The notes under the pieces: model-generated
The model's database searches: none
The model's input: only the letters and a program-made list of their open reading frames with translations
What the model was told of the DNA's origin: nothing
DNA from: a virus
IMG/VR virus record: IMGVR_UViG_3300033182_000371
Location: 1 to 64,000 of that record
Length of the DNA stretch: 64,000 nt
Direction: 5' to 3' (one strand)
Position numbers and translations under genes: made by a program
Shown: positions 19,567 to 63,982 of the stretch, piece after piece
How the letters are laid out: each line of letters starts with the position of its first letter
Position numbering within the stretch: the first letter of the stretch is position 1

Positions 19567-20208
19567 TTATTTCACCACAGCGATGACAGGTTTGTAAAGC
19601 CAACCTGTCTTGCAGTAATTGCAGTGCTCAGGAACTTCAACCTCATAAGGTTTGAAACTCATGTCAAACTTTGTTTCAAGTTCCATATTACTTAACATAA
19701 CATAGAACCGATCAACATGTCCCTGCATTGGAGCACCTTGGGTAGAACAATAGAAAGAGAACTTTGCTTTCTCGTTCGAATGTTCACTGATACATGTTAC
19801 CATAAAATGAATGATATCGCAACCAGCGTATTGAAGAATCTCTGGTGTCATCCACTTCTCTTCAATGTAAGGATCATAAAAGAAGCAATCGTACTTTCCA
19901 AGATGATCCCTACAAGGCCATCCTTGATTGAGCACTGTAATGTTTTTATAATCCTTTGCCCATTCCAATGCTCTCGCATATGCAACAGGGTCTGGTTCTA
20001 GAACAGTATATGATTTGATGTCATGTTTCTGAAACTGGGTCGCAGAGTATCCCATACCAAAACCAACCTCTAGGATATCTCCGTAAGGTTCTAAGGCATC
20101 GACACATTCTTCCATATACTTCTTCTCCCATTCCATCATATATTGATGGTCTTCGGAAGTTCCGTAAAGAATATCTTCGTCGTTTATGTCTTTTGTGTAT
20201 TTTGCCAT
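19567..20208 (-). CDS. Class I SAM methyltransferase, GAMT/Rmt2-like
   Basis: MMEWEKKYM, ILEVGFGMGYSA, YDCFFYDPY. Confidence 0.8.
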   Translation of the reverse strand: MAKYTKDINDEDILYGTSEDHQYMMEWEKKYMEECVDALEPYGDILEVGFGMGYSATQFQKHDIKSYTVLEPDPVAYARALEWAKDYKNITVLNQGWPCRDHLGKYDCFFYDPYIEEKWMTPEILQYAGCDIIHFMVTCISEHSNEKAKFSFYCSTQGAPMQGHVDRFYVMLSNMELETKFDMSFKPYEVEVPEHCNYCKTGWLYKPVIAVVK

Positions 20209-20630
20209 GGGAAATAATCTTTTTTCATATACCTCCCAAGAATATTACTATTGTAATACTTTGGAGTTCCATCTTCTAAGGATTCAGTCAAAACATTATG
20301 AAGGAATAATTGCTTAGTCTCTTCGAAATTAACAAATCCTTTCGTCTTATGTAGGCTTAAAATTTCTCTCTTGAAATTAGAGTTCCCAAGCTCCTTTCTT
20401 TCTGCGCTAAGTTCATCAGAACTGCCATAGTATTTCTTCCAGTCACTTTCACTTCTAACTCTCCTAGTTTTGCCTCTAGGCTTTCGTAGCGACCAGAAGT
20501 ACTTTCTGCCAATGTAAATCCGACCAGAAATGAGATTAGTGATACGGTAGACAAACCCGTAGTAATCACCAATATCCTCACTACTGAACGGAGTACCTTC
20601 GTAAGTCCATGGGTTTTCATAATCAACCAT
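20184..20630 (-). CDS. GIY-YIG nuclease (T4 endonuclease II-like)
   Basis: GFVY-x9-IYIGRK, YYGSS, conserved E and YN. Confidence 0.8.
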   Translation of the reverse strand: MVDYENPWTYEGTPFSSEDIGDYYGFVYRITNLISGRIYIGRKYFWSLRKPRGKTRRVRSESDWKKYYGSSDELSAERKELGNSNFKREILSLHKTKGFVNFEETKQLFLHNVLTESLEDGTPKYYNSNILGRYMKKDYFPWQNTQKT

Positions 20631-20725: not shown

Positions 20726-22459
20726 TCAGACTCCTTTATATCCTGGTGCCTTAATTTCTTTTGGTTTCCCATCAGGACCAGTTACATACTTGACCCCAGA
20801 CTTACCAGTCTTCGGAGACTCCCAAGGATTCAAGGTTCCCTTAACTGGAGGGAATGCCTCGCCCAGGACCTCCTCTACGATGCTTTCGATCTGTTCAGCG
20901 GTCAGTTGCTCCATGATCGCCTCAGCGTGCTCTACGCTGTCCATGAGACCATTCTCATCAAGATATGTTAGAATGACATCATAGAGATTAAAATCATCCT
21001 TCATCCAACGGGGAACAGTATCGTCCTTCTGGGCTGCCATTTCCTTGCGAGCCTTCTCATTGTTCTCCTGACGCTTCTTCATATTTGTTTCCAAATACGA
21101 ATCATCCTTCTTGTCTTTCTTGTATTGAGGATGATCGTCTACACTATGTCCACGCTTTTTCTCAAGACGCTTCTTACGCTCTTCAGTGCCCTTCTCGGCA
21201 TCAACATCACGGACACCTTCCTTAACACAGTTAGGAACTTGACGACCGTCCTTAGTCTTAGTACCCTTTGCCTTGTAACCATCCCAGCACTTGCTAGCAC
21301 CGACATTCTTCCGTGCCTGCTTCAAGGATTCGATGACAGATTTAGTTTCTTCAACCATCTCACCCTCAACTTCATGAGAATTCATCAGAGGATTCTTAGT
21401 ATTGTAAGTCATCTTAGACTTAGGAGGATTGGCACTCATCAGGGGGTTAGGTGTCATGCCAGATCTTCTGCCATAGTTAGCACCAAACTTTGCCTTGAAC
21501 TTAGTTTGTCCAAGAGTCTCTGCCTGTCTAGTAGCAGCAGATGCTGCTTTAAAGTCTCCTGCAGCACTAGCTGACTTTGCCTTTGCCTGCAGTGCCTTGT
21601 AGTCAGCGTTGGGATCGGGTTTGGGTGCAGGTTTGGGTGTAGAGGGTTGAGAAGAGTATGCAGACCCCGTAGAGGTCGATCCAGTTCTTGCTACCTGTGC
21701 GTTCTGCTTTGCTACTTCCTGTTTGGCAACATTAGCAGCGGCAGAACGCACACCAGTTTGTGCGGGTGGTGGAGTGGATGCTGCTTTTGTTTCTGCTTTC
21801 TGTTGAGCAAGTTTCTGTTGCTTCTGTGCAGCAGTGATAGCAGTAGAGGTAGTGCTACCACCTTCACCATACTTATTGGTTCCAAAGAATTTCTCAGCAT
21901 CAGCAGCTGGGACCTGTGGTCTAGGAGGAACATACGGTTGAGCAACTCTTGGTCTTGGACCAACACCTTGTTCTGGACCTGGCGATTTTTTGTTCCTGTT
22001 GCGCCAGTTATTCATAGTGCCTCTAATAAGATCTAGAGGGAAAAATCCTGTTGCTTGCTGTTCAAAAACAATCGCTCTTGCCTGCTTTTTCTCAGCAGTC
22101 TCAAGATTCTCATGGATGCGAGGATTGACTGCCTTCATGGCAGAAATAAACTCAGGTCCAACAACATCCATCGGGAGTGCTTCGATGATGTTATCCAGAA
22201 GTCTGGCACTCTCATATCCTTCGCCAATCAGAACCTCAGCAATGGCGCGATACTGCTCAGCATAGACAGGGTTCATTGCATGCAGTCTCTTCAGGTAGAA
22301 GGACTCGCATGTGCATTTATCTACTTTCTTCTTATCTACTTTCTTTCCTTGAGGATTGTCGTCTTTTCTGTTCCAATCTTTTACTTCTTCCTCAGATTTC
22401 TTGCCTTCGGCAATCTGAGCATAGGATTCAGAAAGTTTATCTAAGTGAGAGCGATTCAT
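20726..22459 (-). CDS. Large modular low-complexity protein, probable late/internal head protein
   Basis: 577-aa ORF preceded by TATAAATA (22486-22493); shares the CWDGY...VPNCVKE module with 29485-30624. Confidence 0.75.
   Translation of the reverse strand: MNRSHLDKLSESYAQIAEGKKSEEEVKDWNRKDDNPQGKKVDKKKVDKCTCESFYLKRLHAMNPVYAEQYRAIAEVLIGEGYESARLLDNIIEALPMDVVGPEFISAMKAVNPRIHENLETAEKKQARAIVFEQQATGFFPLDLIRGTMNNWRNRNKKSPGPEQGVGPRPRVAQPYVPPRPQVPAADAEKFFGTNKYGEGGSTTSTAITAAQKQQKLAQQKAETKAASTPPPAQTGVRSAAANVAKQEVAKQNAQVARTGSTSTGSAYSSQPSTPKPAPKPDPNADYKALQAKAKSASAAGDFKAASAATRQAETLGQTKFKAKFGANYGRRSGMTPNPLMSANPPKSKMTYNTKNPLMNSHEVEGEMVEETKSVIESLKQARKNVGASKCWDGYKAKGTKTKDGRQVPNCVKEGVRDVDAEKGTEERKKRLEKKRGHSVDDHPQYKKDKKDDSYLETNMKKRQENNEKARKEMAAQKDDTVPRWMKDDFNLYDVILTYLDENGLMDSVEHAEAIMEQLTAEQIESIVEEVLGEAFPPVKGTLNPWESPKTGKSGVKYVTGPDGKPKEIKAPGYKGV
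21218..21325 (-). repeat. Copy 1 of a 108-nt coding module (LKQARKNVGAxKCWDGY...VPNCVKE)
   Basis: Aligns without gaps to 30148-30255; 29 nt identical (21297-21325 = 30227-30255). Confidence 0.9.
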
Positions 22460-22499
22460 CTTTGGTACTCAGACTCCAATAAAGATATTTATATCTACA

Positions 22500-22540
22500 C
22501 AAAAAGAAGACTTCCCTGATATTTGCCAGGGAAGTCTTCT
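22500..22540 (-). terminator. Intrinsic terminator with 14-bp stem
   Basis: AGAAGACTTCCCTG/CAGGGAAGTCTTCT followed by Ts. Confidence 0.85.
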
Positions 22541-22576
22541 GCGCCGACGATATTCAATTTTATTTATCAGGAAGTA

Positions 22577-22660
22577 TTAGGGGAGAACGGCGGCGATCGT
22601 TCCCCCAAAGAAAAGAGTCATTACTGTTCCTAATGTTAAGGTGGCGGTTGTGAAATTCAT
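22577..22660 (-). CDS. Hydrophobic micropeptide (27 aa)
   Basis: MNFTTATLTLGTVMTLFFGGTIAAVLP; GGAGG SD; TATAAT at 22680-22685. Confidence 0.65.
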   Translation of the reverse strand: MNFTTATLTLGTVMTLFFGGTIAAVLP

Positions 22661-22694
22661 CGTCCCTCCATAGGTCTATATTATATAGCAATTA

Positions 22695-22711
22695 TGTATC
22701 ATAATGATACA
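22695..22711. promoter_or_regulatory. Palindromic operator-like site TGTATCAT-A-ATGATACA
   Basis: Perfect 8-bp inverted repeat 9 nt upstream of the micropeptide -10 box. Confidence 0.65.
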
Positions 22712-22756
22712 AAAGTCTGTCACAACCGCTACTAAATCCGAAGCAATTGTTAAAGA

Positions 22757-22933
22757 TTACAGATAATCCTTACGCTTGTACTTGTTCTTCAACGCTTGTA
22801 GCATCCATGCTTGAGCAAGACTCTTTGGACCATGCATGATTACATTAGATTCCTTCTCACCGATTGTGGGATCAGCAAGAGCAAGTTTTTTCCATTCTGG
22901 CAGTTCAGAGTTTTCCACCGACTTTACCATCAT
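22757..22933 (-). CDS. Hypothetical protein (58 aa)
   Basis: Manual translation MMVKSVENSELPEWKKLALADP...GPKSLAQAWMLQALKNKYKRKDYL. Confidence 0.6.
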   Translation of the reverse strand: MMVKSVENSELPEWKKLALADPTIGEKESNVIMHGPKSLAQAWMLQALKNKYKRKDYL

Positions 22934-23123
22934 TCATTACCCTACTAGACGCTTCATCCCACCCCTCCTGTCTACCTTTGAGATAAAAACGAGTCATTCT
23001 AATACACAGTTTTTCAGACAAAGCAGTTACTAATTCTTCACCATCTTTTGATGCACTGTGCCACATTTTATATTTTGTTTCGTAGACACGAAATGCATCA
23101 TCATGCCATTCATATTCACTCAT
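22905..23123 (-). CDS. Hypothetical protein
   Basis: ORF track; likely start MSEYEWHDDAFRV. Confidence 0.7.
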   Translation of the reverse strand: MSEYEWHDDAFRVYETKYKMWHSASKDGEELVTALSEKLCIRMTRFYLKGRQEGWDEASSRVMNDGKVGGKL

Positions 23124-23331
23124 AATTTTTTTTGTTAAATCCAAAGGGTTGGTTCTCAAGTTCTTTTTGAACCCTAAGTTTCTGTGCAAGCTTGCAGACA
23201 GTTTCCATTACTTTGAGTGTGTCCTCAATGGTTGATTCCACTGGCATTTGATTACGGACAATATCAAACAATGGAAAGAATTGTTCTGCTGCTTCAGTAA
23301 CTTCTTCAGTCGTTAATGGTTTTGTATTCAC
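23116..23331 (-). CDS. Hypothetical protein
   Basis: ORF track; GTGA overlap with nrdB. Confidence 0.65.
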   Translation of the reverse strand: MNTKPLTTEEVTEAAEQFFPLFDIVRNQMPVESTIEDTLKVMETVCKLAQKLRVQKELENQPFGFNKKNYE

Positions 23332-24509
23332 AATTGGAATCCTGCAAAGGTATCTTTTTCGACATCCTGTTTGATGCCACCGACAATATAGGACTCGACT
23401 TCGGTCTCTTGGGGAGCAACCTGAAGACCTTTGGACGAGATCCAGTGTTGTGTCCAGGGGAGGGGGTTATTTTTGGCAGAGATATCATAAAGAGGTTTCA
23501 GCCCAATGGCTTTCATACGACGATTAGCAATCCATTCGACATACTGGCACAGAAGTTTTTCATTCAGACCAATCATGGATCCATCTTTGAACAAATATTC
23601 TGCCCACTGCTTCTCCTGATTTACAGCATGCTGGAAGGTTTGAATCAACCAGGATTCCTCTTCCTTAGCAATCCTTTGCATGTCTGGGTCATCACCTTCA
23701 CGCCATTTGTTGATGATGTTTTGAGTAATGACAAGGTGCTGATTTTCGTCTCTTGCGATGAGAGAGATAATTTTAGCGGATCCTTCCATAAGCTTGAGTT
23801 CACCAAACGCAAACGAGCAAGCGAACGAGACATAAAACCTGATGCCTTCGAGAATGTTGACATTAGCTACAGCACGAAAAAGTTTTCTCTTAAGTTCATA
23901 GCGATTTTCTTTAAAGGTTCCAGCACCTTCTTGTGCATACTTCCAGTCATCACTGACACCATACTGCTGAGCAGCATTAATGAAGTCGTCATATGCCTGA
24001 GTGATAGCAGCAGCTCTCTCCAGAATCCTCTCGTCGTCGATGATGGTATCAAATACTTCAGAGGGATCACTGTATACATTTTTGATGATGTATGTGTATG
24101 AGCGACTATGGATCATCTCCATGAATTGCCATACATTCATACATGCCTCCAGTTCAGGGAGGGAACAGTATGGCGAGAATGCCATACCAGGACCACGACC
24201 CTGAATAGAGTCTAGCATAACCTGATACTTTAGGTTGCTAGTGAAAATATGTTTTTGTTCTGGACGAAGTGTCTGATAATCAGCACGATCTTTTTGAAGA
24301 GAGACTTCCTCGGGTCTCCAGAAGTAACCCAATTGTTGTTGAGTCAGTTTGTCAAAGATTGGATACTTATAGGAATCGTATCTCTGAATGCTAAGGGGAG
24401 AACCAAAAAACATTGGTTGCTTTTTGGGGTCTGATGCGGTTGTATTGAAGACAGTCATTCCTTGAATAACTGGGTCTTGTTCTTTGATCCTAAATTGCAC
24501 AGGCGTCAC
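23328..24509 (-). CDS. nrdB: Ribonucleotide reductase class Ia beta subunit
   Basis: FWRPEEV, LDSIQGR, EMIHSRSY (radical Tyr), LEGIRFY, RDENQH, VAPQETE. Confidence 0.98.
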   Translation of the reverse strand: MTPVQFRIKEQDPVIQGMTVFNTTASDPKKQPMFFGSPLSIQRYDSYKYPIFDKLTQQQLGYFWRPEEVSLQKDRADYQTLRPEQKHIFTSNLKYQVMLDSIQGRGPGMAFSPYCSLPELEACMNVWQFMEMIHSRSYTYIIKNVYSDPSEVFDTIIDDERILERAAAITQAYDDFINAAQQYGVSDDWKYAQEGAGTFKENRYELKRKLFRAVANVNILEGIRFYVSFACSFAFGELKLMEGSAKIISLIARDENQHLVITQNIINKWREGDDPDMQRIAKEEESWLIQTFQHAVNQEKQWAEYLFKDGSMIGLNEKLLCQYVEWIANRRMKAIGLKPLYDISAKNNPLPWTQHWISSKGLQVAPQETEVESYIVGGIKQDVEKDTFAGFQL

Positions 24510-26784
24510 ACTCCTCTTGCTTGCTTAAATTTTCGAGTAAGTTTTCTAGTACTGATTCAGTTTTAGTCTCTTCTAATTCATCCGTTTTATTGTCGTAGGT
24601 GTTCTGATAGTAGGATGTTTTCCACCCGTACTTATATGTAGTCAGAAGATCATTTGCCATGACAGAAACGGGTACTTCATTGTCGCTGTAGTTCTCTGGG
24701 TTGTAACTCCAGTTACCAGAGATAGCCTGGTCGAAGAACTTTTGCATTACGGCGACGATCTTGATATAGCCTTCATTAGACGCCATATCCCAGAGAAGGG
24801 TGTAGTGAGACTTGAGACTATTATACTGCGGAACGATCTGCTTGAGCGGACCCTTCTTCGATTTCTTAGTGGACAAGAATCCACGAGGAGGTTCGATTCC
24901 GTTGGTTGCATTTGACACAACGGAACTGCTCTCCGATGGCATCTGTGCGGACAGTGTTGAGTTCCGTAATCCGTATGCAACGATAGACTCTCTAAGACCT
25001 TCCCAATCATAGTTTAACTTATGCGGTACAATTCCGTCAACATCCTTCTTGTATGTATCAATCGGAAGAATACCTGAAGAATATTTGGTACGGTTGAAGT
25101 AACCACAAGGACCAATCTCTTTTGCAAGTTGATTGGATGCCTTCAGCAGATAGTACTGGAACGCCTCTGTAAGGTCGTGTACGAGTTGATGTGCTTCTTG
25201 ATCATCATAACCCACCTTATGCTTAGCAAGATAGTGTGCAAGACCAATATAACCCACACCCAGGGAACGACGATTCTTGGTGCCTACCTCTGCTGCTTTG
25301 ACAGGATATCCTTGGAAGTCGATGAGAGCATCCAGACCACGCACAGAGAGGTCACAGAGTTCCTCTAACTCATCAAGGTTACGAAGTTTGCCTACATTGA
25401 TTGCAGACAGAATACAGAGAGCAATTTCACCCTCTCCATCAATATGCTGAAGTGGTTTAGTCGGTAAAGTAATCTCTTGACAGAGATTGCTCATCTCTAC
25501 CTTATCCAAGAAGGAAGAGTGGGAATTGCAGTGGTCGATATTCATGATATACAAACGACCAGTCTCTGCCCTCTCCTTGAGAATGCTCAGGAAAAGTTCT
25601 TGTGCTGAAACAGACTGTCTTGGAACAGACTTATCTGATTCATAACCCACATAAAGCTCGTCAAATCTATCAGTACCAAAAGCATCATACAGACCAGGAA
25701 CATCGTGCGGACTGAAGAGTGAGATGTCTTGGTTCTTGATGAAACGCTCATAGAAGAGTTTGGTGATTTGGATGCTATAGTCTAAGCGACGAACACGATT
25801 ATCCTCAGTTCCCTTATTATTTTTTAGGACAATGATGTCTTGGATTTCTTTGTGCCAGATTGGGAAGTGGACAGTTGCTGATCCACCTCTGATGCCATTT
25901 TGAGTGCAGCATCTGACAGTTGCTTCAAACTTTTTGAGGAAAGGGATAACACCTGTGTGTTGAACTTCTCCGCCTCTGATCTTACTGTTGATGCCACGGA
26001 TCCTACCCGCGTTGATGCCGATACCCGCCCTTTGTGCAACATATCTGCCGATAGCCATATCAGAACTAAAGATGCTATCGAGGGAGTCATCAACATCAAC
26101 AAGAACACAGCTAGCAAATTGTCGAAGTGGAGTTCTAACCCCTCCCATGATAGGTGTGGGAATGTTGATTTTGTGCTTTGAGATTGCGTCGTAGTACCTC
26201 TTGACATAATCGAGACGGGTTTCCTTAGGATACTCAGCAAAGATCGTAGCAGCGATCATCAAGTACATGAACTGGGGAGTCTCATAGACATCTCCAGTGC
26301 TACGATCCTGAACGAGATATTTATCTGCTACCTGGCGAAGACCAGCATAGGTGAACAGGAAGTCACGCTCATGGTCAAGATATCCATTCAGTTTTTCCCA
26401 CTCTTCTGCAGAATATTTTACCGCAATTTCTGCATCATAAACTCCTCTTTTTATGGATTGCTCCACATGCTGCTGCAAGGTGGGGCACTCATGCATACGA
26501 CCCCACAGTTGTTTCCTGAGGGCAAACAGGAGCAGTCTGGCAGCAACGAATTGATAGTTCGGATTCTCAAGGTCAATCAGATCGCTAGCACTACGAATCA
26601 GGATCTCCTGAATTTCAGCAGTGGTAACACCATCATAAAACTGAATACCAGAATTAATTTCAATCTGAGAAGCAGAGACGCCAGCAAGATCTTTACATGC
26701 TTCGTCTACCATCTTATGCATCTTATTGAGATCAAGTGATTCAAGTTCACCAGATCTTTTACGAACTTTAGTCCCGTTGGTCAT
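24490..26784 (-). CDS. nrdA: Ribonucleotide reductase class Ia alpha subunit
   Basis: ATP cone, QFASCVL, SNLCQEI, ALCILS, TSYY, C-terminal CDAC. Confidence 0.98.
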   Translation of the reverse strand: MTNGTKVRKRSGELESLDLNKMHKMVDEACKDLAGVSASQIEINSGIQFYDGVTTAEIQEILIRSASDLIDLENPNYQFVAARLLLFALRKQLWGRMHECPTLQQHVEQSIKRGVYDAEIAVKYSAEEWEKLNGYLDHERDFLFTYAGLRQVADKYLVQDRSTGDVYETPQFMYLMIAATIFAEYPKETRLDYVKRYYDAISKHKINIPTPIMGGVRTPLRQFASCVLVDVDDSLDSIFSSDMAIGRYVAQRAGIGINAGRIRGINSKIRGGEVQHTGVIPFLKKFEATVRCCTQNGIRGGSATVHFPIWHKEIQDIIVLKNNKGTEDNRVRRLDYSIQITKLFYERFIKNQDISLFSPHDVPGLYDAFGTDRFDELYVGYESDKSVPRQSVSAQELFLSILKERAETGRLYIMNIDHCNSHSSFLDKVEMSNLCQEITLPTKPLQHIDGEGEIALCILSAINVGKLRNLDELEELCDLSVRGLDALIDFQGYPVKAAEVGTKNRRSLGVGYIGLAHYLAKHKVGYDDQEAHQLVHDLTEAFQYYLLKASNQLAKEIGPCGYFNRTKYSSGILPIDTYKKDVDGIVPHKLNYDWEGLRESIVAYGLRNSTLSAQMPSESSSVVSNATNGIEPPRGFLSTKKSKKGPLKQIVPQYNSLKSHYTLLWDMASNEGYIKIVAVMQKFFDQAISGNWSYNPENYSDNEVPVSVMANDLLTTYKYGWKTSYYQNTYDNKTDELEETKTESVLENLLENLSKQEECDACAI

Positions 26785-27749
26785 ACCTTTTTCCACTCTG
26801 TAAACTTAACTTTTGCTTCTAATCCTGAGTATGTATTTGATTTTAACATGCCGTTAACATCATGTCCAGCAAGGACCATATCATTGATGTCTTTTTCTAC
26901 AATTCCACTTGGCCAGATGACGACTCTTTCGCCTCTTGATATGCAGTTGTCAATGCGATCGACAATCTCTCTATTGCGGGGCTCATTATCATAAACATAA
27001 ATGAGATCATTTCCCTCAAGACAACGAAGATCACCGTCAGCGCCACACAAAGCCACGCTATTGTCGATAAAAGTGCTGTCCAGGGGTCCTTCGACCACAT
27101 AGACAGGTAGTCCTGAATCGATTGTGTCGTATCCATAAATTTTTGGTGCATGATCATCAAGCATCACGGTAATATATTTAACACGGTTAGGACCTATAGC
27201 CCTTCCCTGAAAACCAATTAGGTTTTGATTATAAAACAAAGGAATGATTATCCTAGATTCTTCGTGAGAAGTGCTCGTGAATACCTCTTGAAAAGTATTG
27301 GCAAATGACTTGAACTTCTCAGCAAAGTAAAACTTGGACGGGTCAATCTTCCGTCCTTCCAGATACTTTTTTGCGGTTTCTACCTCACTGCACAGAGGAA
27401 GATCCAACTTTGCAATGAACTTAGGTTTTTCAAAAACAAACTCTGGTTCTTCAATAACAAAGTTCTTACCAGTATGTCCCTCTTTAAACTTCTCGATAGA
27501 ATACTTTTTATGCAGAGTAGTATCTAACTTCTTCAAGAAGTTGTTAAGGGACATCGAAGCACCACAATTGTGGCACTTGAAGTTTGTATTATTTTTGACT
27601 GTATAGATGTACCCACGCGCTTTGTTCTTGTAACGCTGGGAGTCTCCACAGATAGGGCAACGAAAATTATAAAGATCTGCCTTTACTCTTTTAAACTTCT
27701 GGAGTCTAGCAGAGACAAGACCGATATACTTGGAATCAATTAAGTCCAT
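26781..27749 (-). CDS. gp61: DNA primase (T4 gp61)
   Basis: CPICGDS...CHNC zinc finger, VEGPLDS, YDNEPRN, KDIND. Confidence 0.97.
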   Translation of the reverse strand: MDLIDSKYIGLVSARLQKFKRVKADLYNFRCPICGDSQRYKNKARGYIYTVKNNTNFKCHNCGASMSLNNFLKKLDTTLHKKYSIEKFKEGHTGKNFVIEEPEFVFEKPKFIAKLDLPLCSEVETAKKYLEGRKIDPSKFYFAEKFKSFANTFQEVFTSTSHEESRIIIPLFYNQNLIGFQGRAIGPNRVKYITVMLDDHAPKIYGYDTIDSGLPVYVVEGPLDSTFIDNSVALCGADGDLRCLEGNDLIYVYDNEPRNREIVDRIDNCISRGERVVIWPSGIVEKDINDMVLAGHDVNGMLKSNTYSGLEAKVKFTEWKKV

Positions 27750-28161
27750 TCACCAGACTAGTGCCTGGGACTATTGTACTCGTTATCGGTGCAGGTGTCA
27801 ATAATCTGATGATAGGAGGAGCCACTTGTAGCACCGTCACAACTGTAGCGATGACAGCCATAGCACCAACAACAAACCTCCCATTCCTATCAACTTTCTT
27901 CTCAAGTTCACCTATCTTTTCATCGATGTTCTTGAACATACGATCATCATACTTCTGATGATCCTTAATCATTTGGATGATTGCTTGATTCGCCTTGTCG
28001 CCTTCATCGAGTCTATTCTCGTGGCGCTCTAGAATAATGGCAGTTTTATTCGTATTATCTTGAATAGAAGATACTGCACGCTCTAACTTGTCCAGCATTT
28101 CCTTGGACAAGTCTTCGTAGATGCTTAACTTTGACTCAAGAACCCCTAGTTTTCCTAACAT
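27736..28161 (-). CDS. Coiled-coil protein with C-terminal transmembrane helix
   Basis: ORF track; heptad pattern and FVVGAMAVIATVVTVL. Confidence 0.7.
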   Translation of the reverse strand: MLGKLGVLESKLSIYEDLSKEMLDKLERAVSSIQDNTNKTAIILERHENRLDEGDKANQAIIQMIKDHQKYDDRMFKNIDEKIGELEKKVDRNGRFVVGAMAVIATVVTVLQVAPPIIRLLTPAPITSTIVPGTSLVNGLN

Positions 28162-28324
28162 GGTCTAACCAGCGTTTGCGTGAACCTTTACCAAGGTAAA
28201 TGTTTCTTCCAGCAACGGGTCCTTTGGGGTCAGATGTATCAGAAAAACCGCCAGATGCTCCTGGAGCATTGGCGACCATCATCTCTTTCAAGATGTCATA
28301 CACTTTTTGTAAGCGTCGATCCAT
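28136..28324 (-). CDS. Hypothetical protein
   Basis: ORF track; likely start MDRRLQ. Confidence 0.6.
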   Translation of the reverse strand: MDRRLQKVYDILKEMMVANAPGASGGFSDTSDPKGPVAGRNIYLGKGSRKRWLDHVRKTRGS

Positions 28325-28695
28325 CAGACTGCTCGTAACTGTTCTAAACAATACTCGTCATCGATAATATTATTTAGTTCCGTGCGTGGATAATCAGGAA
28401 CTCTGCCAAGATATGTCAAGAAACTTTTAGTACAAGACCAAAGATCTCTGTCTAATTTAAAAAACAACAAAGGAACTCCAGCGTCCCCAAACACATTAAA
28501 AAGGACTATGAAGTGATTAAGAATCAAGTGGGTCCTTAACTCCCCACTGTTCTTATACCTCTTCAGTAGCCTTTTAATATACTTAATTCTTTTTAGATCA
28601 TCATAAAAATCCTCTTCGGTCACCGCTTGAGGATTCTCATAGTTCTTAATGGCAAATAAGAGATAATTGCTATCGTTCAATTCATGAAATTTCAT
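28324..28695 (-). CDS. Conserved T4-like hypothetical protein
   Basis: LFAIKNYENP...DLKRIKYIKRLL...LILNH. Confidence 0.8.
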   Translation of the reverse strand: MKFHELNDSNYLLFAIKNYENPQAVTEEDFYDDLKRIKYIKRLLKRYKNSGELRTHLILNHFIVLFNVFGDAGVPLLFFKLDRDLWSCTKSFLTYLGRVPDYPRTELNNIIDDEYCLEQLRAV

Positions 28696-28705
28696 TCACT
28701 TATTA

Positions 28706-29206
28706 TCACTCGTCAGTAGGATAAGCGATTCCATAATCGCCAGTTTGAATACCAGACATGGCAACAAGAACTTCGCTCTTGACTCTCAGGTTGCCGTGCA
28801 TATCCATGTATGTCATAACACCGACATATCCATGGTGAGCAACAGCATAAGAACCAGAGGTGTCCGTGGAAATACCATAAACCAGAGAGTCTGCTTCGCT
28901 TCTCTCTTCCTGGTAAACGCTATCCTTGACGGTGTACATCGGCAGTTCGCTGATGTAATAAGAGGTAGCGGCGATGCTGGATGCGCTCAGACCCGCATCA
29001 GAATCGATGGTCAGAACTCTATCGCTGGTAATGCCAGTGATAACAGCATCGCCATAGTATGTACCTACGCCGCCACGAGATCCTACTCGGATGACTTGAC
29101 CGACGCTGTAGTCGGTAAAGGTGGTGCCAGTACCAGTTACAGTCAGATTAGCAACGGTAACTGTACCCGCAGTTTCAATGTTGTCGTTAATGCCCCAAAG
29201 AGCCAT
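28706..29206 (-). CDS. Probable virion structural protein
   Basis: MALWG start, T/G/V-rich beta protein, RVKSEVLVAM; late promoter TATAAATA at 29240-29247. Confidence 0.7.
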   Translation of the reverse strand: MALWGINDNIETAGTVTVANLTVTGTGTTFTDYSVGQVIRVGSRGGVGTYYGDAVITGITSDRVLTIDSDAGLSASSIAATSYYISELPMYTVKDSVYQEERSEADSLVYGISTDTSGSYAVAHHGYVGVMTYMDMHGNLRVKSEVLVAMSGIQTGDYGIAYPTDE

Positions 29207-29249
29207 GTCCTTACGCCCAAACTACAGTTTTCGTACAATTATTTATAAG

Positions 29250-29453
29250 TCAAGCATCCTCGCGGTTTCTGATTGCAGCAGAAACTGCTTCCAGAAGCTT
29301 GTCATCCATATCGGTTTTGGTCAGTTTAACTGCCTTACCGAGAATGACCAGACAGATTTCGATAAGTTTTTCGCCAAGTTCCTCGTTCTCGGGAATCTTA
29401 GCAACAGCATCGGAGATAATTTTCGATGCTAAGGGAAGTAAAAATCCTAACAT
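29250..29453 (-). CDS. Hypothetical protein
   Basis: ORF track. Confidence 0.7.
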   Translation of the reverse strand: MLGFLLPLASKIISDAVAKIPENEELGEKLIEICLVILGKAVKLTKTDMDDKLLEAVSAAIRNREDA

Positions 29454-29484
29454 GATTTGAAAGGCAACGCCTTTCTATATAGGC

Positions 29485-30624
29485 TCAATCTCTCGCAGAG
29501 TCGTATTTAGATCTTGCCTGAGATTCCTTCTTTTCTTTAGAAGTCAGTCCATACTTAGAAATACGCTTGTTAGTCTTCTTGATTCTCTCTTGACTCAGTT
29601 CACCTTCGGTCTGTTTACGACCTCTTTCACTTTTCTCTTCACGAGAACCAGGGTGCTCCTTACGGAACTTGCTGGTGATACCTTCATACTTTCCCTCTTT
29701 CTCGTATCCAGCAACCTTCTTGCCCTTCTCTTCGATATCTGGTCTGCGAGTTCCCTCTGCAATGGCAGCGATCTCTTCTTTTACAGATTTCTTCTCAGGA
29801 AGTTTAGTATGCTTAGTGGAGGCAAAATCCTTCACATCCTTCTTGTTCATGCTGGCAGCAACTTTGGCAACCTCAGGCGACGCTGCTCTCTCACCTTTCT
29901 GAGCAGCTCTGACCATACCCATGAAACGCTGCTGCTTTCTAGAGACTGCCTTTTCATTGACCTGTTCAACTTCTTCGGACACTCCTCTTGCCCTATTCAT
30001 CGCATCATTAAATTTCTTATTTCTATCAGAGACCATTCCCTTGACTTTCTTGATGGCTTCCTGACCAATCTTAGTGCCAGCGATAGCAGTTCCTGCCATC
30101 AAACCAAGTTTAATAGCAGTAGCTGCTGCTTCATCAACTTGCTCTTCTTCCTTTACACAGTTAGGAACTTCTTTGCCACCCTTCTTCTTAGTTCCCTTAG
30201 CAACATATCCATCCCAACACTTACCCGCACCGACATTCTTCCGTGCCTGCTTCAACCCTTCTTGAATATCAGGATTGATTTTGATTACATTCTTTACGGG
30301 TTTCTCTTCAATAGTTAACTCTTTTTCGTCAGAGTTCGTCGCCTTCTCGGCGGGATAAAGCTTTTTTTCGGTTAAGTCTCCAACCTTTTGACGCAGAGTC
30401 GCTTCTACTTCTTCCTTCTTAACACGCTTTGCTTTATCAGCAGCAATAGCAGCACCAACTGCCTTACGACGATTTCTCAGATAAGAATCGGACTTATCAG
30501 AGTCACCATCATTATCAATATCAGCGTCTTCCTTACCAACAGGATCCAACTTTTCGGTAATAAAAACATTTGCCATGCTGTTAAGCATGATCTGCTCGGC
30601 GCTATCTTCAATAAAGTTTTTCAT
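29485..30624 (-). CDS. Modular late protein (DxDxDG, CWDGY-VPNC and DUF3008-like modules)
   Basis: TATAAATA at 30657-30664; modules DADIDNDGD, CWDGY...VPNC, KAVSRKQQRFMG...KDFASTKH. Confidence 0.75.
   Translation of the reverse strand: MKNFIEDSAEQIMLNSMANVFITEKLDPVGKEDADIDNDGDSDKSDSYLRNRRKAVGAAIAADKAKRVKKEEVEATLRQKVGDLTEKKLYPAEKATNSDEKELTIEEKPVKNVIKINPDIQEGLKQARKNVGAGKCWDGYVAKGTKKKGGKEVPNCVKEEEQVDEAAATAIKLGLMAGTAIAGTKIGQEAIKKVKGMVSDRNKKFNDAMNRARGVSEEVEQVNEKAVSRKQQRFMGMVRAAQKGERAASPEVAKVAASMNKKDVKDFASTKHTKLPEKKSVKEEIAAIAEGTRRPDIEEKGKKVAGYEKEGKYEGITSKFRKEHPGSREEKSERGRKQTEGELSQERIKKTNKRISKYGLTSKEKKESQARSKYDSARD
30148..30255 (-). repeat. Copy 2 of the 108-nt coding module
   Basis: Aligns to 21218-21325. 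Confidence 0.9.
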
Positions 30625-30648: not shown

Positions 30649-31848
30649 CTATCTTTTATTTATAAACGACTTGACTTTTTCAAGTGGAGTAAGGGATTGT
30701 ACATACTCTCGGTAGGAATCTGTACCTATTTCTCTCTTCGAAGCAGGAACTCCAGAAGGAATGCGAGAGACATACTCAGTCAAGTCTCTAATCCAAGACT
30801 TGAACATAATACCCTCATTTGTAACTGCAATTACATGGTTAGCACCACGGCGAATGATTCTACCAACTAATCCAGTGTTAAGAGATTCTACAAGAGAACC
30901 CATTCCAAAGATATTACCATAAAGATAATTCTCTCTGAGTGTTTTTGAATCATACTTAGGAGCAATTTGCCACAGTTCAATACCCTCGGTAGTCGCTGCA
31001 GTTGCCATAGATCTTTGAACTGTATTGAACAGTTCTCTAGCAACTACACCCTTTGCTGCTTTTGGCAATCCTTTCCTGAAAGATTCATAATCTCCATCTG
31101 CTGCTAGTGCTCGTAATTTCGAAGCAGACATGCCCTCGACCCCTTCAGCATCGGGGTCCCGTTCTCCAGCAGAGATGACATTAATCGCATCAAAATTATA
31201 GAGTTGTCCGTTGTATTTGTTTGCGAGGTTCTCAAACTCCTTTTGTCTGTCAGCACCAACCACGATGTTGATGCCACTATATCCTTCGACATCGGCTTGT
31301 TTTAACGCATCAAAAATAGTACGAATTGCGGGATCATATACAATTGCATTTGCATGATCAGGGAACATCTTCTTCATGAAGAGAACCTTGGTCTCAGAAT
31401 CAAGAGGATTCTTTTGAGGATCTACAGAATGAGAAGGATAAACAATATACTCCTCACCATCAGCAGTCTTTTTAATTGTATCTAAAAGTTTTTCGTGACC
31501 AGATGTGGGAGGATTGAATCTACCAAATCCAATGGTAAGAGTCCCTCTAGTTTTTTCTACTTCTTCAACTTCTCCTTCTTCAGGTTGCATTCCACCTTTT
31601 CCAGGAGCAGGTGGTGGTGGTTGGTCAGGAAGTGTTCCTCTGGCAGCAGGTCCAGGTCTTGTGGGATCACTCTCTTGTGCGGGTTTTCTGCCACTGGTGA
31701 ATACCAATTCACCTTCGACTGTTCTTCCTACAATTCTACCCTGAGGATCTAACCACGATCCATGACCGTCACCCTTCAAACCAAGCTTCTTCGCTTGCTT
31801 TGCAGCGTTAGTCTGTGCCTCGTTCAAAAACTGGAAGAAACTCTTCAT
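30649..31848 (-). CDS. Cytidylyltransferase-like (HIGH-fold) nucleotidyltransferase
   Basis: FGRFNPPTSGH, KNPL, VVGADR, MSASKLR; late promoter at 31889-31896. Confidence 0.88.
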   Translation of the reverse strand: MKSFFQFLNEAQTNAAKQAKKLGLKGDGHGSWLDPQGRIVGRTVEGELVFTSGRKPAQESDPTRPGPAARGTLPDQPPPPAPGKGGMQPEEGEVEEVEKTRGTLTIGFGRFNPPTSGHEKLLDTIKKTADGEEYIVYPSHSVDPQKNPLDSETKVLFMKKMFPDHANAIVYDPAIRTIFDALKQADVEGYSGINIVVGADRQKEFENLANKYNGQLYNFDAINVISAGERDPDAEGVEGMSASKLRALAADGDYESFRKGLPKAAKGVVARELFNTVQRSMATAATTEGIELWQIAPKYDSKTLRENYLYGNIFGMGSLVESLNTGLVGRIIRRGANHVIAVTNEGIMFKSWIRDLTEYVSRIPSGVPASKREIGTDSYREYVQSLTPLEKVKSFINKR

Positions 31849-31850
31849 GA

Positions 31851-32459
31851 TTATTTTGCAAATACCCGCCGTGTATTCTCCGCAACTCTATTTATATTAA
31901 AGGATACAGTCATACGAAGATGTTTACTATCATTCTTCTTAACAAAGTGCTTCAAGTGGGATGGAAAGATTAGTATGTCTCCCTCTTCTACAGGGATATC
32001 GGTATGTTCCAAGATGTGAGGATTCAATCTTTCATCCATAATGTTTCCATCAAACATGAAAGAAAATATATTATCTAGAGGATTGCAAAATGTTGTTCCT
32101 TCATGCTCAAGAGGATCAAACATCACATAATGGATAGCAGAATAAAATCCAGGAAGATGAGTGTGAGGTTCTTGGTAATGAGAACGCTCATAGGTATTCA
32201 ACCAAATCTCATAGATGTGAGGTTTTTCTAAAAGTCCAATATCCTTTCTCCACTGTTGCAAAACACCAGTATAATTATCACTAATCTCTTGAGGGAATGC
32301 ACCTTCAAATTCTGTCCTGACATTACAAAACCAACCAGAAGGAGTTCCATTGATAGAAAAATCCTTATAGGAGTTATACCTATCCAGCATGTGCTGTTTT
32401 ATTTCTGTGGGGTCAAGGTGATATTTGTATATTCTTTGAGGAAACAAATCAATGTACAT
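31851..32459 (-). CDS. 2OG-Fe(II) oxygenase-like protein (TIGR02466-like)
   Basis: WLN, PHTH, EGDILIFPSHLKH, RMTVSFN. Confidence 0.85.
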   Translation of the reverse strand: MYIDLFPQRIYKYHLDPTEIKQHMLDRYNSYKDFSINGTPSGWFCNVRTEFEGAFPQEISDNYTGVLQQWRKDIGLLEKPHIYEIWLNTYERSHYQEPHTHLPGFYSAIHYVMFDPLEHEGTTFCNPLDNIFSFMFDGNIMDERLNPHILEHTDIPVEEGDILIFPSHLKHFVKKNDSKHLRMTVSFNINRVAENTRRVFAK

Positions 32460-61455: not shown

Positions 61456-62895
61456 TCACATGAGGTTCTTAACAACTGTACGCTGGTAGTAGCGGTTGCT
61501 GTTAGAGGTGATACGACCGAGACCCTGGTTCGAAACATTGCCTTCAGCGAAGGGGTTGGAGACAAGACCGTAGCGGGTCTTGAAGCCAATCTTGGGCTGG
61601 AAGCTGTTCTCACCGACGGCACGAACCATCTGGAGGGGAACATAGGGGCAGTAGAAGAGACCAGCGTCATAGGGGCTGGTGCCCTTGTAACCGACAACAT
61701 AGTACTGGTTAGAAGCACTGTTGGCAGAGAAGGGATCGATGTAGACTCTGTACTTGCCGTTGATGGTTCCAGCGAAGGTGTTACCAGTGTCGTCAACTTG
61801 CAGGTTGGCGTTCAGGGCAGGGGTGTAATCGAGTACACCAGCCATGGTCAGAGCGGAGGCGACATCAGCAGAGGTCATGATGATGTTGCCCTTCCCTCTA
61901 CGAGTTCTCTGGGCGATTCTGTTAGCATCTCTTTCGATGTTAAACAGCAGACCCTTGAACTTCTCAACGCTCCAGCGACCGTTGGAGTCAACATCGAGGT
62001 CGAAGAAACCAGCGTTGGCAACATTGACCTGAGAACCAGCTTCAGCGGTCTTGTAGATGGTTCTGATGACTTCGCGGTTGATCTCAGCAAGGATCTCGCT
62101 AGACAGAATGTTAGCGAGTTCTGCTTCAGCGTTCAGACCGTGGATGGCACGCAGGTCCTGAGCCAGCTCCATGCTGTACTCAGCTTTCAGAGCACGAGAC
62201 TTGGCGGTAACGGTGACCTTCTCGATCGAGAATGCCATCTCGTTGAAGTTGGTGCCGTTGCCGTCACCCAGAGCTTCAGAGTCGCCAGTAGCCATACCCT
62301 GACCAACGCTGTACTGAGCTTGAACAGCATCAGAAGCGGTGCCTTCCAGGATACCAGGGTTGGTGCCACGCTGAGTAGCGGTAGAACCAAAACCAACAGC
62401 CAGACCATCATCGGTGGCAGCGGTGTAGTCGCCTTGGGTGGAGGTGCCACCAGCGACATTGGCGGAGAATGCAGAATCGGGCTCGTCGAAGAATGCCTCG
62501 GTGCCAGACTGGTTGGTGTAGCGGGAGCGCATTGCGAAGATCAGTCCAGTAGGACCGTTCATCGGTTGAACGCCAGCCAGTTCATAAGCAACCAGATTCG
62601 GCATAGAGCGACGAATCAGGGAGATCAGAACGGGGTCGAAACCAGCGGTAGGACCAGCAGCAGTAGAACCACCACCGAAAGCACCAGAAGCGCCAGCGGC
62701 GTTACCAGAGTTGGTGGGAGCTTCGGTCAGCATCGAGGTGCCGCTTTCGAAAGCAGCTTGCTCACGCAGGAAACGCTCTTGGTTTTCCAGGAGAACAGCG
62801 GTAGTAGCACGACGGTGAGAGTCCTTAATAGGATCTACACCCTCGGCATCGAGAAGGGGAGACCACTTCTCAATTAATTGTTGTGCGTTGTACAT
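61456..62895 (-). CDS. gp23: Major capsid protein (T4 gp23)
   Basis: KWSPLL, LLENQ, GVQPMNGPTG, SRALKAEY, EINREV, YCPYVPL, GFKTRYG. Confidence 0.99.
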   Translation of the reverse strand: MYNAQQLIEKWSPLLDAEGVDPIKDSHRRATTAVLLENQERFLREQAAFESGTSMLTEAPTNSGNAAGASGAFGGGSTAAGPTAGFDPVLISLIRRSMPNLVAYELAGVQPMNGPTGLIFAMRSRYTNQSGTEAFFDEPDSAFSANVAGGTSTQGDYTAATDDGLAVGFGSTATQRGTNPGILEGTASDAVQAQYSVGQGMATGDSEALGDGNGTNFNEMAFSIEKVTVTAKSRALKAEYSMELAQDLRAIHGLNAEAELANILSSEILAEINREVIRTIYKTAEAGSQVNVANAGFFDLDVDSNGRWSVEKFKGLLFNIERDANRIAQRTRRGKGNIIMTSADVASALTMAGVLDYTPALNANLQVDDTGNTFAGTINGKYRVYIDPFSANSASNQYYVVGYKGTSPYDAGLFYCPYVPLQMVRAVGENSFQPKIGFKTRYGLVSNPFAEGNVSNQGLGRITSNSNRYYQRTVVKNLM

Positions 62896-62929: not shown

Positions 62930-63982
62930 TTACTTCATTCCAAGGGCTTTCAAATAAGATGCCATCGAAGAGGTTGCTTCGACGCCAGTCTCTGAGGTTA
63001 CGCCCTCAGACAGTGTTTCCACTTTATTAGAAGACTGCTTTTGCTCGCTGGGGAAATAAGATTCTCTCAGCGTAACCAGCTTCTCACGATAAGATTCTTC
63101 ACCCTCAAACTCAACACCTTCAGACAAAGCGTACAGTTTCTCTCTTTGTGTTACAGCAAGACCTTCGGTTACTTCACGGAAAATTCCATCAGCTGTAGTT
63201 TCACCGAGTCTCTTGTTGAGAGAGATGTTAGCTTCAATCTGTTCGTCAAGTCTGGCTTCCATTTCATCAAGTTTGGAGACCATGCTCTCCAGGACATCAT
63301 ATTTATCGTCAGGGATAGAAACATAATGATCTTCAAAAAGACTCTTCATTCCTTGCAGGAACGATTCGGTCATTTCGGTCTTCAGACCGTGCTCAACTTC
63401 GATCTTGTTCTCGGAGACCCACTCTTCGGAAACATACTCAAGGTATGCATCGACGCGCTCTACGAGTTCTGCCTTAACAGACTCAAGATGCTCGGTCAGT
63501 TGAGATTCGTACTCAGCAGCCATTGCTTCTTGAACTTCCGTTACCTTAGCGGCAACAACAGCCTCGAAGATGGTGCGAGCCTTTTCTTGGAATTCTTCGG
63601 AGAGTTCTTCGCCACCAAACAGAGCAGCAAGATCTTCTTCGATGTCAACAGCGGGAGTCTCTTCGACTTCCTGCTCAGCAACGACTTCCTGAGTCTCTTC
63701 GACTTCAGGCTCGTCGCCTTGCTTCAGAACTTCAGTGCCAATCGACTGCATAGCGTCAGCTTTGCCAGCGCCACGGTTGACAACATCTCTAACGGTTTTG
63801 ACTTTGGGTTCTGCGAGCTTAGCGGACTCGTTATCGGGCTTATAGTTCTCGGGGGTAGGACCACCGAGATCTTGTACAGCCGCAAGACCAGTTCCAGGAT
63901 CAGCCAATGTAGGCATTCCTTCGCCAGCTTTCGCACCCCTTGTTACAGGATTTTCCATTTCTTGTAATTCCTTAGCGGACAT
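62930..63982 (-). CDS. gp22: Prohead core/scaffold protein (T4 gp22)
   Basis: LSEEFQEKARTIFEA, VDAYLEYV, acidic coiled coil; directly upstream of gp23. Confidence 0.93.
   Translation of the reverse strand: MSAKELQEMENPVTRGAKAGEGMPTLADPGTGLAAVQDLGGPTPENYKPDNESAKLAEPKVKTVRDVVNRGAGKADAMQSIGTEVLKQGDEPEVEETQEVVAEQEVEETPAVDIEEDLAALFGGEELSEEFQEKARTIFEAVVAAKVTEVQEAMAAEYESQLTEHLESVKAELVERVDAYLEYVSEEWVSENKIEVEHGLKTEMTESFLQGMKSLFEDHYVSIPDDKYDVLESMVSKLDEMEARLDEQIEANISLNKRLGETTADGIFREVTEGLAVTQREKLYALSEGVEFEGEESYREKLVTLRESYFPSEQKQSSNKVETLSEGVTSETGVEATSSMASYLKALGMK

Follow-up and report, generated by a model that had tools for sequence, protein, structure and literature searches.

Mosaic proteins of a T4-like cyanomyovirus as candidate late, packaged, protease-processed strings of recombining mini-modules

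Two predicted late mosaic genes and the module they share

The DNA analysed here, which we call the window, is a stretch of 64,000 nucleotides (positions 1 to 64,000 of IMG/VR virus record IMGVR_UViG_3300033182_000371). It belongs to a 74 kb contig of a T4-like cyanomyovirus, whose megablast and tblastn matches were almost all Synechococcus and Prochlorococcus myoviruses and which also encodes nrdA, nrdB, primase, gp23, gp22, gp21, gp20, gp19, gp18 and gp17. We focused on two genes at the ends of the interval 20726-30624, each encoding a mosaic protein; nrdA, nrdB, primase and other genes inside this interval are unrelated and fall outside the feature. P0001 (577 residues, 20726..22459) consists of an 18-residue leader, a conserved N domain, a long basic low-complexity stretch, a module with two cysteines (the two-Cys or CW module), a C domain and a basic tail. 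P0002 (379 residues, 29485..30624) consists of a leader, a DxDxDG module, a CW module, a variable cassette, a DUF3008-like module and a basic C-terminus. Both genes, the neighbouring gene P0003, gp22 and gp23, together with the leaders, modules and promoter matches located below, are on the minus strand.

Exact matches to the late-promoter motif TATAAATA lie 34 nt upstream of the P0001 ATG (22486..22493) and 40 nt upstream of the P0002 ATG (30657..30664). The same exact motif precedes P0003, a cytidylyltransferase-like gene (30649..31848, motif at 31889-31896) directly downstream of which P0002 lies, as well as a 166-residue open reading frame (ORF) at 28706-29206 and the head scaffold gene gp22 (62930..63982, motif at -48); it was not found upstream of nrdA, nrdB or primase. 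On the basis of this motif, the mosaic genes would be expressed late, alongside the head genes. The prohead protease gene gp21 comes next after gp22, just beyond the window (contig 64033-64683), and its product matches the T4 gp21 structure 5JBL (E 2.8e-23). The major head protein gene gp23 (61456-62895) encodes LTE|A at residues 56-58 (62722..62730), with the glutamate at residue 58, the LTE|APTN of the initial annotation; it matches the T4 gp23 maturation site.

That annotation had also described P0001 and P0002 as otherwise unrelated late-promoter ORFs sharing a two-Cys module, and this description holds. A single significant high-scoring segment pair (HSP) was returned by BLASTP, between residues 375-414 of P0001 and 120-159 of P0002 (31/40 identical, E 2e-13), and because all remaining HSPs had E > 3 we consider the two proteins otherwise unrelated. 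The CW module proper spans residues 378-414 of P0001 (21218..21328), flanked by VIE| and VKE|, and residues 123-159 of P0002 (30148..30258), flanked by IQE| and VKE|; each copy has a net charge of +7. AlphaFold2 predicted the P0002 copy as a helix plus a beta hairpin that is closed by the two cysteines. At the DNA level the match is ungapped with 96 of 132 bases identical, and the 29 identical nucleotides reported originally are its longest exact run. This run (21296-21324 and 30226-30254) spans the LKQARKNVGA codons and is longer than coding for the same protein would require, which suggests gene conversion within the genome or a hot spot at which recombination shuffles the modules.

The two-Cys module is widespread. 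A 48-residue query retrieved 733 clusters at 50% identity, in which the module occupies any position, in one to three copies, of proteins that range from 98 to 814 residues; across these 50%-non-redundant clusters it retains about 80% identity, and a Pfam search returned no family for it. Tailed viruses of haloarchaea share its hairpin, CW.GY...G.K....G..VPNCV. HSTV-1 has it in the product of gene 13 (L006:2787-4208), annotated as a head maturation protease, with a Peptidase_S78_2 domain on one side of the hairpin and an acidic scaffold-like tail on the other, and in HRTV-29 it is carried by gp36 (L007:2842-4398), a 518-residue protein whose gene sits between the portal and capsid genes. Both of these halovirus proteins begin with a similar MPF..(F/Y).D(F/W)D.C motif. 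The haloarchaeal-virus hairpins are an independent hint that the module belongs in the head interior.

Module shuffling, border motifs and leaders

The other modules of P0002 have relatives of their own. Its DxDxDG module, a calcium-binding-like element with a basic helix (residues 25-86, 30367..30552), contains the aspartate ladder DIDNDGDSDKSD and gave no match to PF00404 (Dockerin, an EF-hand-like calcium-binding loop) at E <= 1; the corresponding module of the relative P0030 scored 34.9 bits against that profile. The DUF3008-like module (residues 225-277, 29794..29952) is preceded by VNE| and ends in LPE|. Residues 226-279 matched the full DUF3008 profile (PF11450, positions 1-57) with 18.4 bits (E 0.0025), which is below the 24-bit gathering cut-off. 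Because the relatives P0033 and P0030 exceed this cut-off, with 28.7 and 29.4 bits, we regard the P0002 module as homologous to DUF3008 despite its sub-threshold score.

Across homologues these units are shuffled. Phage records covered at most ~40% of either protein and did so piecewise, more than 12 PHROG families each matched a different short stretch of the mosaic proteins, and the metagenome-protein matches (3213 for P0002 and 968 for P0001) were likewise piecewise. Using simple motif anchors, we counted 66 architectures in 377 proteins, among which true permutations of order are present (C-D/D-C, W-C/C-W and U-C/C-U), and alignment of close relatives showed entire cassettes exchanged between conserved modules. 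The variable cassette of P0002, between its two-Cys and DUF3008-like modules, contains a Gly/Ala-rich hydrophobic stretch, AAATAIKLGLMAGTAIAGTKIG (residues 166-190, 30055-30129), that might act on membranes or form a glycine zipper; at this position the cassettes of close relatives are wholly different. A PDB sequence search with P0002 gave no match, an ESM Atlas search gave only viral 'hypothetical protein' clusters, and Pfam and PHROGs searches of the mosaic proteins found no IPI, IPII, IPIII or Alt family, the PHROGs hits being labelled 'unknown function' only.

The initial annotation had placed hydrophobic-x-Glu (h-x-E) tripeptides, of the kind cleaved by T4 gp21, at module junctions, and every junction it quoted is present in P0001 or P0002. 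To evaluate the borders we aligned 132 non-redundant CW copies on their first cysteine, with a background h-x-E frequency of 2.8% per position. Conservation is confined to a block of 37 residues, from -13 to +23, and collapses beyond it. At the N border the glutamate of an h-x-E falls at -14 in 61% of copies and at -15 in a further 11%, at the C border it falls at +23 in 81%, and a third peak occurs at +28 and +29. Scored in four-residue windows at the CW border, h-x-E was found in 75% compared with a background of 11%. The DUF3008-like module has [ILV]-x-E upstream in all 35 distinct contexts, with ten different middle residues; the GLWDNIHAKRKRG (W) module has h-x-E three to five residues upstream in nearly all of 73 contexts, and the DxDxDG (D) module has it in 52% of contexts. 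In an unbiased test, h-x-E glutamates marked 12.9% of the ends of local BLAST HSPs between non-orthologous representatives, against 2.8% expected; single-linkage clustering collapsed the mosaic proteins to 36 clusters, so this test rests on few representatives and the enrichment is just 2- to 4.6-fold. The claim of shuffled modules bordered by a gp21-type motif is thus borne out across homologues.

Individual sites are also retained, for example in 24/24, 23/24 and 19/22 aligned homologues. P0002 has 13 h-x-E in total, against 8.4 in shuffled sequences (p = 0.06), and P0001 has 16 against 8.7. AlphaFold2, run with a 26-sequence alignment, predicted no global fold for P0002 (mean predicted local distance difference test score, pLDDT, 58.6; predicted template modelling score 0.19) and instead gave separate small elements; 10 of its 13 h-x-E sites fall in segments with pLDDT < 50, which make up 35% of the residues (p = 0.003). 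Cutting in silico at every h-x-E yielded basic modules with a net charge of +5 to +18 and short acidic pieces with a net charge of -1 to -4. The h-x-E flanks are absent from three halovirus hairpin copies, whereas in Melnitz, a T4-like phage of Methylophilales, the hairpin copy is fused to the cytidylyltransferase and has them on both sides, a contrast that, in this small sample, fits the idea that the flanks accompany a gp21-type protease.

The N-termini of all three proteins resemble the T4 capsid-targeting sequence MKTYQEFIAE, in which residues 4 and 7 are mainly responsible for targeting and residues 8 and 10 for processing (PMC8442874, PMC9026906). The P0003 leader, MKSFFQFLNE|A (10 residues, 31819-31848), agrees with it at all four of these mapped positions, and among P0003 homologues MK[SN]F..F[LI].E is followed by alanine in ~118/120. 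P0002 begins with MKNF...NVFITE|K (residues 1-24, 30553..30624), a leader that reads like the P0003 type with an insertion; MKNF...NVF[IVM]xE is found in 85 of its 120 best homologues regardless of which module comes downstream. The P0001 leader (residues 1-18, 22406..22459) ends in YAQIAE|G, and throughout its family 18 residues ending in Y..IAE are followed by glycine, with conservation stopping right after IAE|G. T4-type propeptides have 10-19 residues and end in L/I-x-E, and in T4 an aspartate at P1 prevents their processing; the leaders of P0003 (10) and P0001 (18) fall in this range, and that of P0002 (24) is slightly over it. The cytidylyltransferase gene is split in P-HM2, and in both P-HM2 and Melnitz the C-terminal part of the enzyme is fused to shuffled modules.

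Relatives in virion proteomes and neighbouring genes

We located relatives in three published virion proteomes. In CsCl-purified S-SZBM1 particles, liquid chromatography–mass spectrometry detected both the cytidylyltransferase S-SZBM1_140 and the product of the gene directly after it, S-SZBM1_139 (457 residues; PMC9146016 Table 1), which we found to contain a two-Cys module. Virions of S-SM1 likewise yielded a cytidylyltransferase (T4-GC190), and the next gene (149421-150842) is flagged with proteomic data (PMC3037559 supplement), in a table whose cluster numbers are offset by one from GenBank and in which the flag and the coordinates share one row; this gene carries a DxDxDG module. From S-CREM2 virions the cytidylyltransferase ORF154 and ORF160 were detected, and the authors proposed that cytidylyltransferases are perhaps carried in virions (PMC10665884); ORF160 holds the two-Cys hairpin. 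P0002 thus has module or positional homologues in three virion proteomes, and because of these relatives the packaging of P0002-type proteins, as foreseen in the initial annotation, is supported. P0003 itself is a probable fellow cargo. The BMC Biology S-SCSM2R proteome makes no mention of these proteins.

The S-SZBM1 table also lists S-SZBM1_195 (L001:3730-3993), an 87-residue hypothetical protein with the third-highest exponentially modified protein abundance index (emPAI) of that virion proteome, whose gene adjoins the gene for a 707-residue protein starting with a DUF3008 module. We considered emPAI as a guide to copy number and rejected it, since in this table the tail sheath scores below the portal and the index is therefore not proportional to copy number. 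Literature searches with the module motifs, DUF3008, and cyanophage internal proteins or capsid-targeting sequences found no relevant paper, nor did we find one on leaders, protease sites or polyproteins in cyanophages; in the searchable cyanomyovirus literature no internal head proteins, capsid-targeting signal or protease substrates besides gp23 are described.

Two neighbouring genes deserve a brief description. The 166-residue ORF at 28706-29206, between a mosaic gene and primase, matches phrog_3086, and its syntenic counterparts in S-SZBM1 and P-HM2 carry the annotation 'virion structural protein'. Just downstream of P0001, a 148-residue ORF (20184-20630) matches phrog_447, a family labelled NAD synthetase, and has weaker matches to two homing-endonuclease PHROGs; a mobile-element gene of the GIY-YIG type may thus lie beside a mosaic gene.

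A model of packaging and processing, and its alternatives

Taking these observations together, we propose that T4-like cyanomyoviruses have a large family of 'beads-on-a-string' proteins, expressed late and packaged in the virion, to which P0001 and P0002 belong. A leader resembling the T4 capsid-targeting sequence would take the protein into the prohead core. Behind the leader, small and conserved modules, most of them basic (the two-Cys hairpin, DUF3008-like, DxDxDG, GLWDNIHAKRKRG and others), would follow one another in any order and number; between them lie short linkers that are acidic, predicted to be disordered and closed by [LIVMF]-x-E, the motif at which T4 gp21 cleaves. During head maturation, the gp21 homologue that the phage encodes most likely takes off the leader and cleaves at least some junctions. 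The basic peptides so released, of ~4-9 kDa and with a net charge of +5 to +18, would remain with the DNA, and the acidic spacers would be lost. The role of the peptides would most likely be virion-intrinsic, in binding DNA or the capsid interior, with co-ejection possible; this is the least certain step. We put the probability of the overall reading, capsid-targeted and packaged strings of recombining conserved mini-modules that are processed by gp21, at roughly 0.55, and judge gp21-type processing into peptides to be probable given the border motifs.

Several known systems resemble this arrangement in part. Like T4 IPI, IPII, IPIII and Alt, the mosaic proteins start with a short leader that ends in L/I-x-E, would have a basic mature part and are predicted to be expressed late, in a genome that encodes a gp21-type protease beside gp22 and gp23, and diverse cargo follows a conserved leader. 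They differ from IPI-III in sharing no sequence homology with them in Pfam or PHROGs and in having leaders of 10-24 residues that form three classes, and whereas the T4 internal proteins are cut once, these are multi-module strings with candidate internal sites and are conserved rather than hypervariable. Within the T4 prohead, cleavage at multiple L/I-x-E sites reduces gp22, gp67 and gp68 to small peptides, but those products are mostly acidic and expelled, whereas the products predicted here are basic and relatives occur in mature virions. In adenovirus, the precursors pVII and pX (mu) are processed by a protease inside the capsid to small and very basic peptides that associate with DNA; adenovirus infects eukaryotes, neither its cysteine protease nor its sequences are related to those here, and the analogy is one of mechanism only. 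With their units and candidate sites for the virus's own protease, the mosaic proteins may be viral polyproteins, in which one ORF is cut into independent products. The inner-body and ejection proteins of phiKZ, 201phi2-1 and SPN3US provide a further parallel, with many head-internal proteins cut after glutamate within a three-residue motif and with redundant propeptide sites (PMC9026906); in the phiKZ type a gp21-related protease cuts at multiple S/A-x-E sites (PMC9026906). There, however, the P3 residue is small rather than hydrophobic, the proteins are unrelated to ours, and shuffling of conserved mini-modules delimited by sites is not described. Our best reading by analogy is that P0001 and P0002 are cyanophage counterparts of the T4 internal proteins, distinct in being strings of recombining mini-modules with a candidate site at each joint.

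A number of observations weigh against this proposal. Since the homologues share ancestry, the p-values attached to h-x-E overstate independence. The conserved block includes the border motif, and its conservation therefore can't by itself tell a cleavage site from a structural element; P3 at CW borders is often Val or Met, compared with the canonical Leu or Ile of T4; the LPE| at the C border of DUF3008 is intrinsic to the Pfam domain; and some junctions are without the motif (KKE and GKG before DxDxDG). As to the virion data, the S-CREM2 authors caution that carry-over could account for non-structural proteins found in CsCl preparations (PMC10665884), and the published proteomes report tryptic coverage of only 10-13%. 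Nor are these data transferable to P0001, because its N domain, used as a tblastn query, matched no isolated phage. Despite the shared ancestry, the h-x-E pattern recurs at the borders of four unrelated modules.

One alternative is that the proteins, once packaged, stay essentially whole and lose at most the leader, as T4 IPI-III do, with h-x-E being a feature of acidic helical linkers or of module N-caps that travels with the modules. Such an explanation would account for a motif inside the conserved block, for the frequent Val or Met at P3 and for h-x-E totals only modestly above those of shuffled sequences, and it follows the T4 internal proteins, which are cut just once, beside the capsid-targeting sequence. 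We nevertheless consider it rather unlikely, given that the same pattern of three residues, the middle one free, is found at the borders of four unrelated modules and at three unrelated leaders, that the sites lie in predicted disordered linkers, and that module permutation and variable copy number suit independent products better than one folded protein; such variation fits units that function once they are released. A different objection concerns the fate of the fragments: the mosaic proteins could be accessory components of the prohead core or scaffold, analogous to T4 gp67 and gp68, that are chopped, mostly expelled before DNA packaging and have no role in the mature virion. T4 gp22, gp67 and gp68 do largely leave the head after cleavage at many L/I-x-E sites, the CW hairpin of HSTV-1 is embedded in a protease-scaffold fusion, and h-x-E is densely packed in acidic regions of S-SM1_191 and S-SZBM1_139. 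Because peptides of three relatives were recovered from mature CsCl-purified virions, and the strongly basic modules favour retention with DNA, we find this the least probable of the explanations considered.

The initial annotation went a step further and proposed that the released peptides are injected and make up a library of exchangeable effectors or anti-defence factors, like the hypervariable T-even internal proteins such as IPI. Those proteins are indeed diverse defence-countering cargo with only the capsid-targeting sequence in common (PMC3012670), and the very variable architectures, the swapping of cassettes among close relatives and the appearance of an enzyme, the cytidylyltransferase, on the same route are all in keeping with such a library. 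On the other side, the core modules form a small, highly conserved and non-diversifying set, and no module matched a known anti-defence family in Pfam or PHROGs. The occurrence of the CW hairpin in viruses of haloarchaea and of Methylophilales makes a host-specific defence protein an unlikely target, and its presence in a haloarchaeal-virus head protein points instead to a target intrinsic to the virion, such as DNA or the capsid interior. Of the original proposal, the shuffled modules bordered by gp21-type sites are supported by the motif in homologues of both proteins, and packaging by the relatives of P0002 in virions, whose cutting into peptides is probable; for P0002, neither of two outcomes named as refuting it, unenriched borders across homologues or absence from virions, was observed. 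The anti-defence library was its weakest step, is not supported, and strikes us as very improbable.

If capsid-targeted, gp21-processed module strings are what these genes encode, a role could be assigned to hundreds of 'hypothetical' mosaic clusters (733 with the two-Cys module alone) in cyanomyoviruses, which are among the most abundant viruses of the ocean, and the recurrence of cytidylyltransferase in cyanophage virion proteomes would be accounted for. A wider and quite unlikely extension is combinatorial packaging, in which T4-like cyanomyoviruses and their marine relatives would use the leader to load module strings and enzymes such as the cytidylyltransferase, the protease would free this cargo, and the cargo would enter the host together with the injected DNA and act there at the very start of infection. 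On the main reading, a sequence rule combining a leader with h-x-E junctions would also predict packaged cargo in uncultured T4-like phages, and the leader may become a tool to load cyanophage heads with foreign proteins, a use that the T4 capsid-targeting sequence already has.

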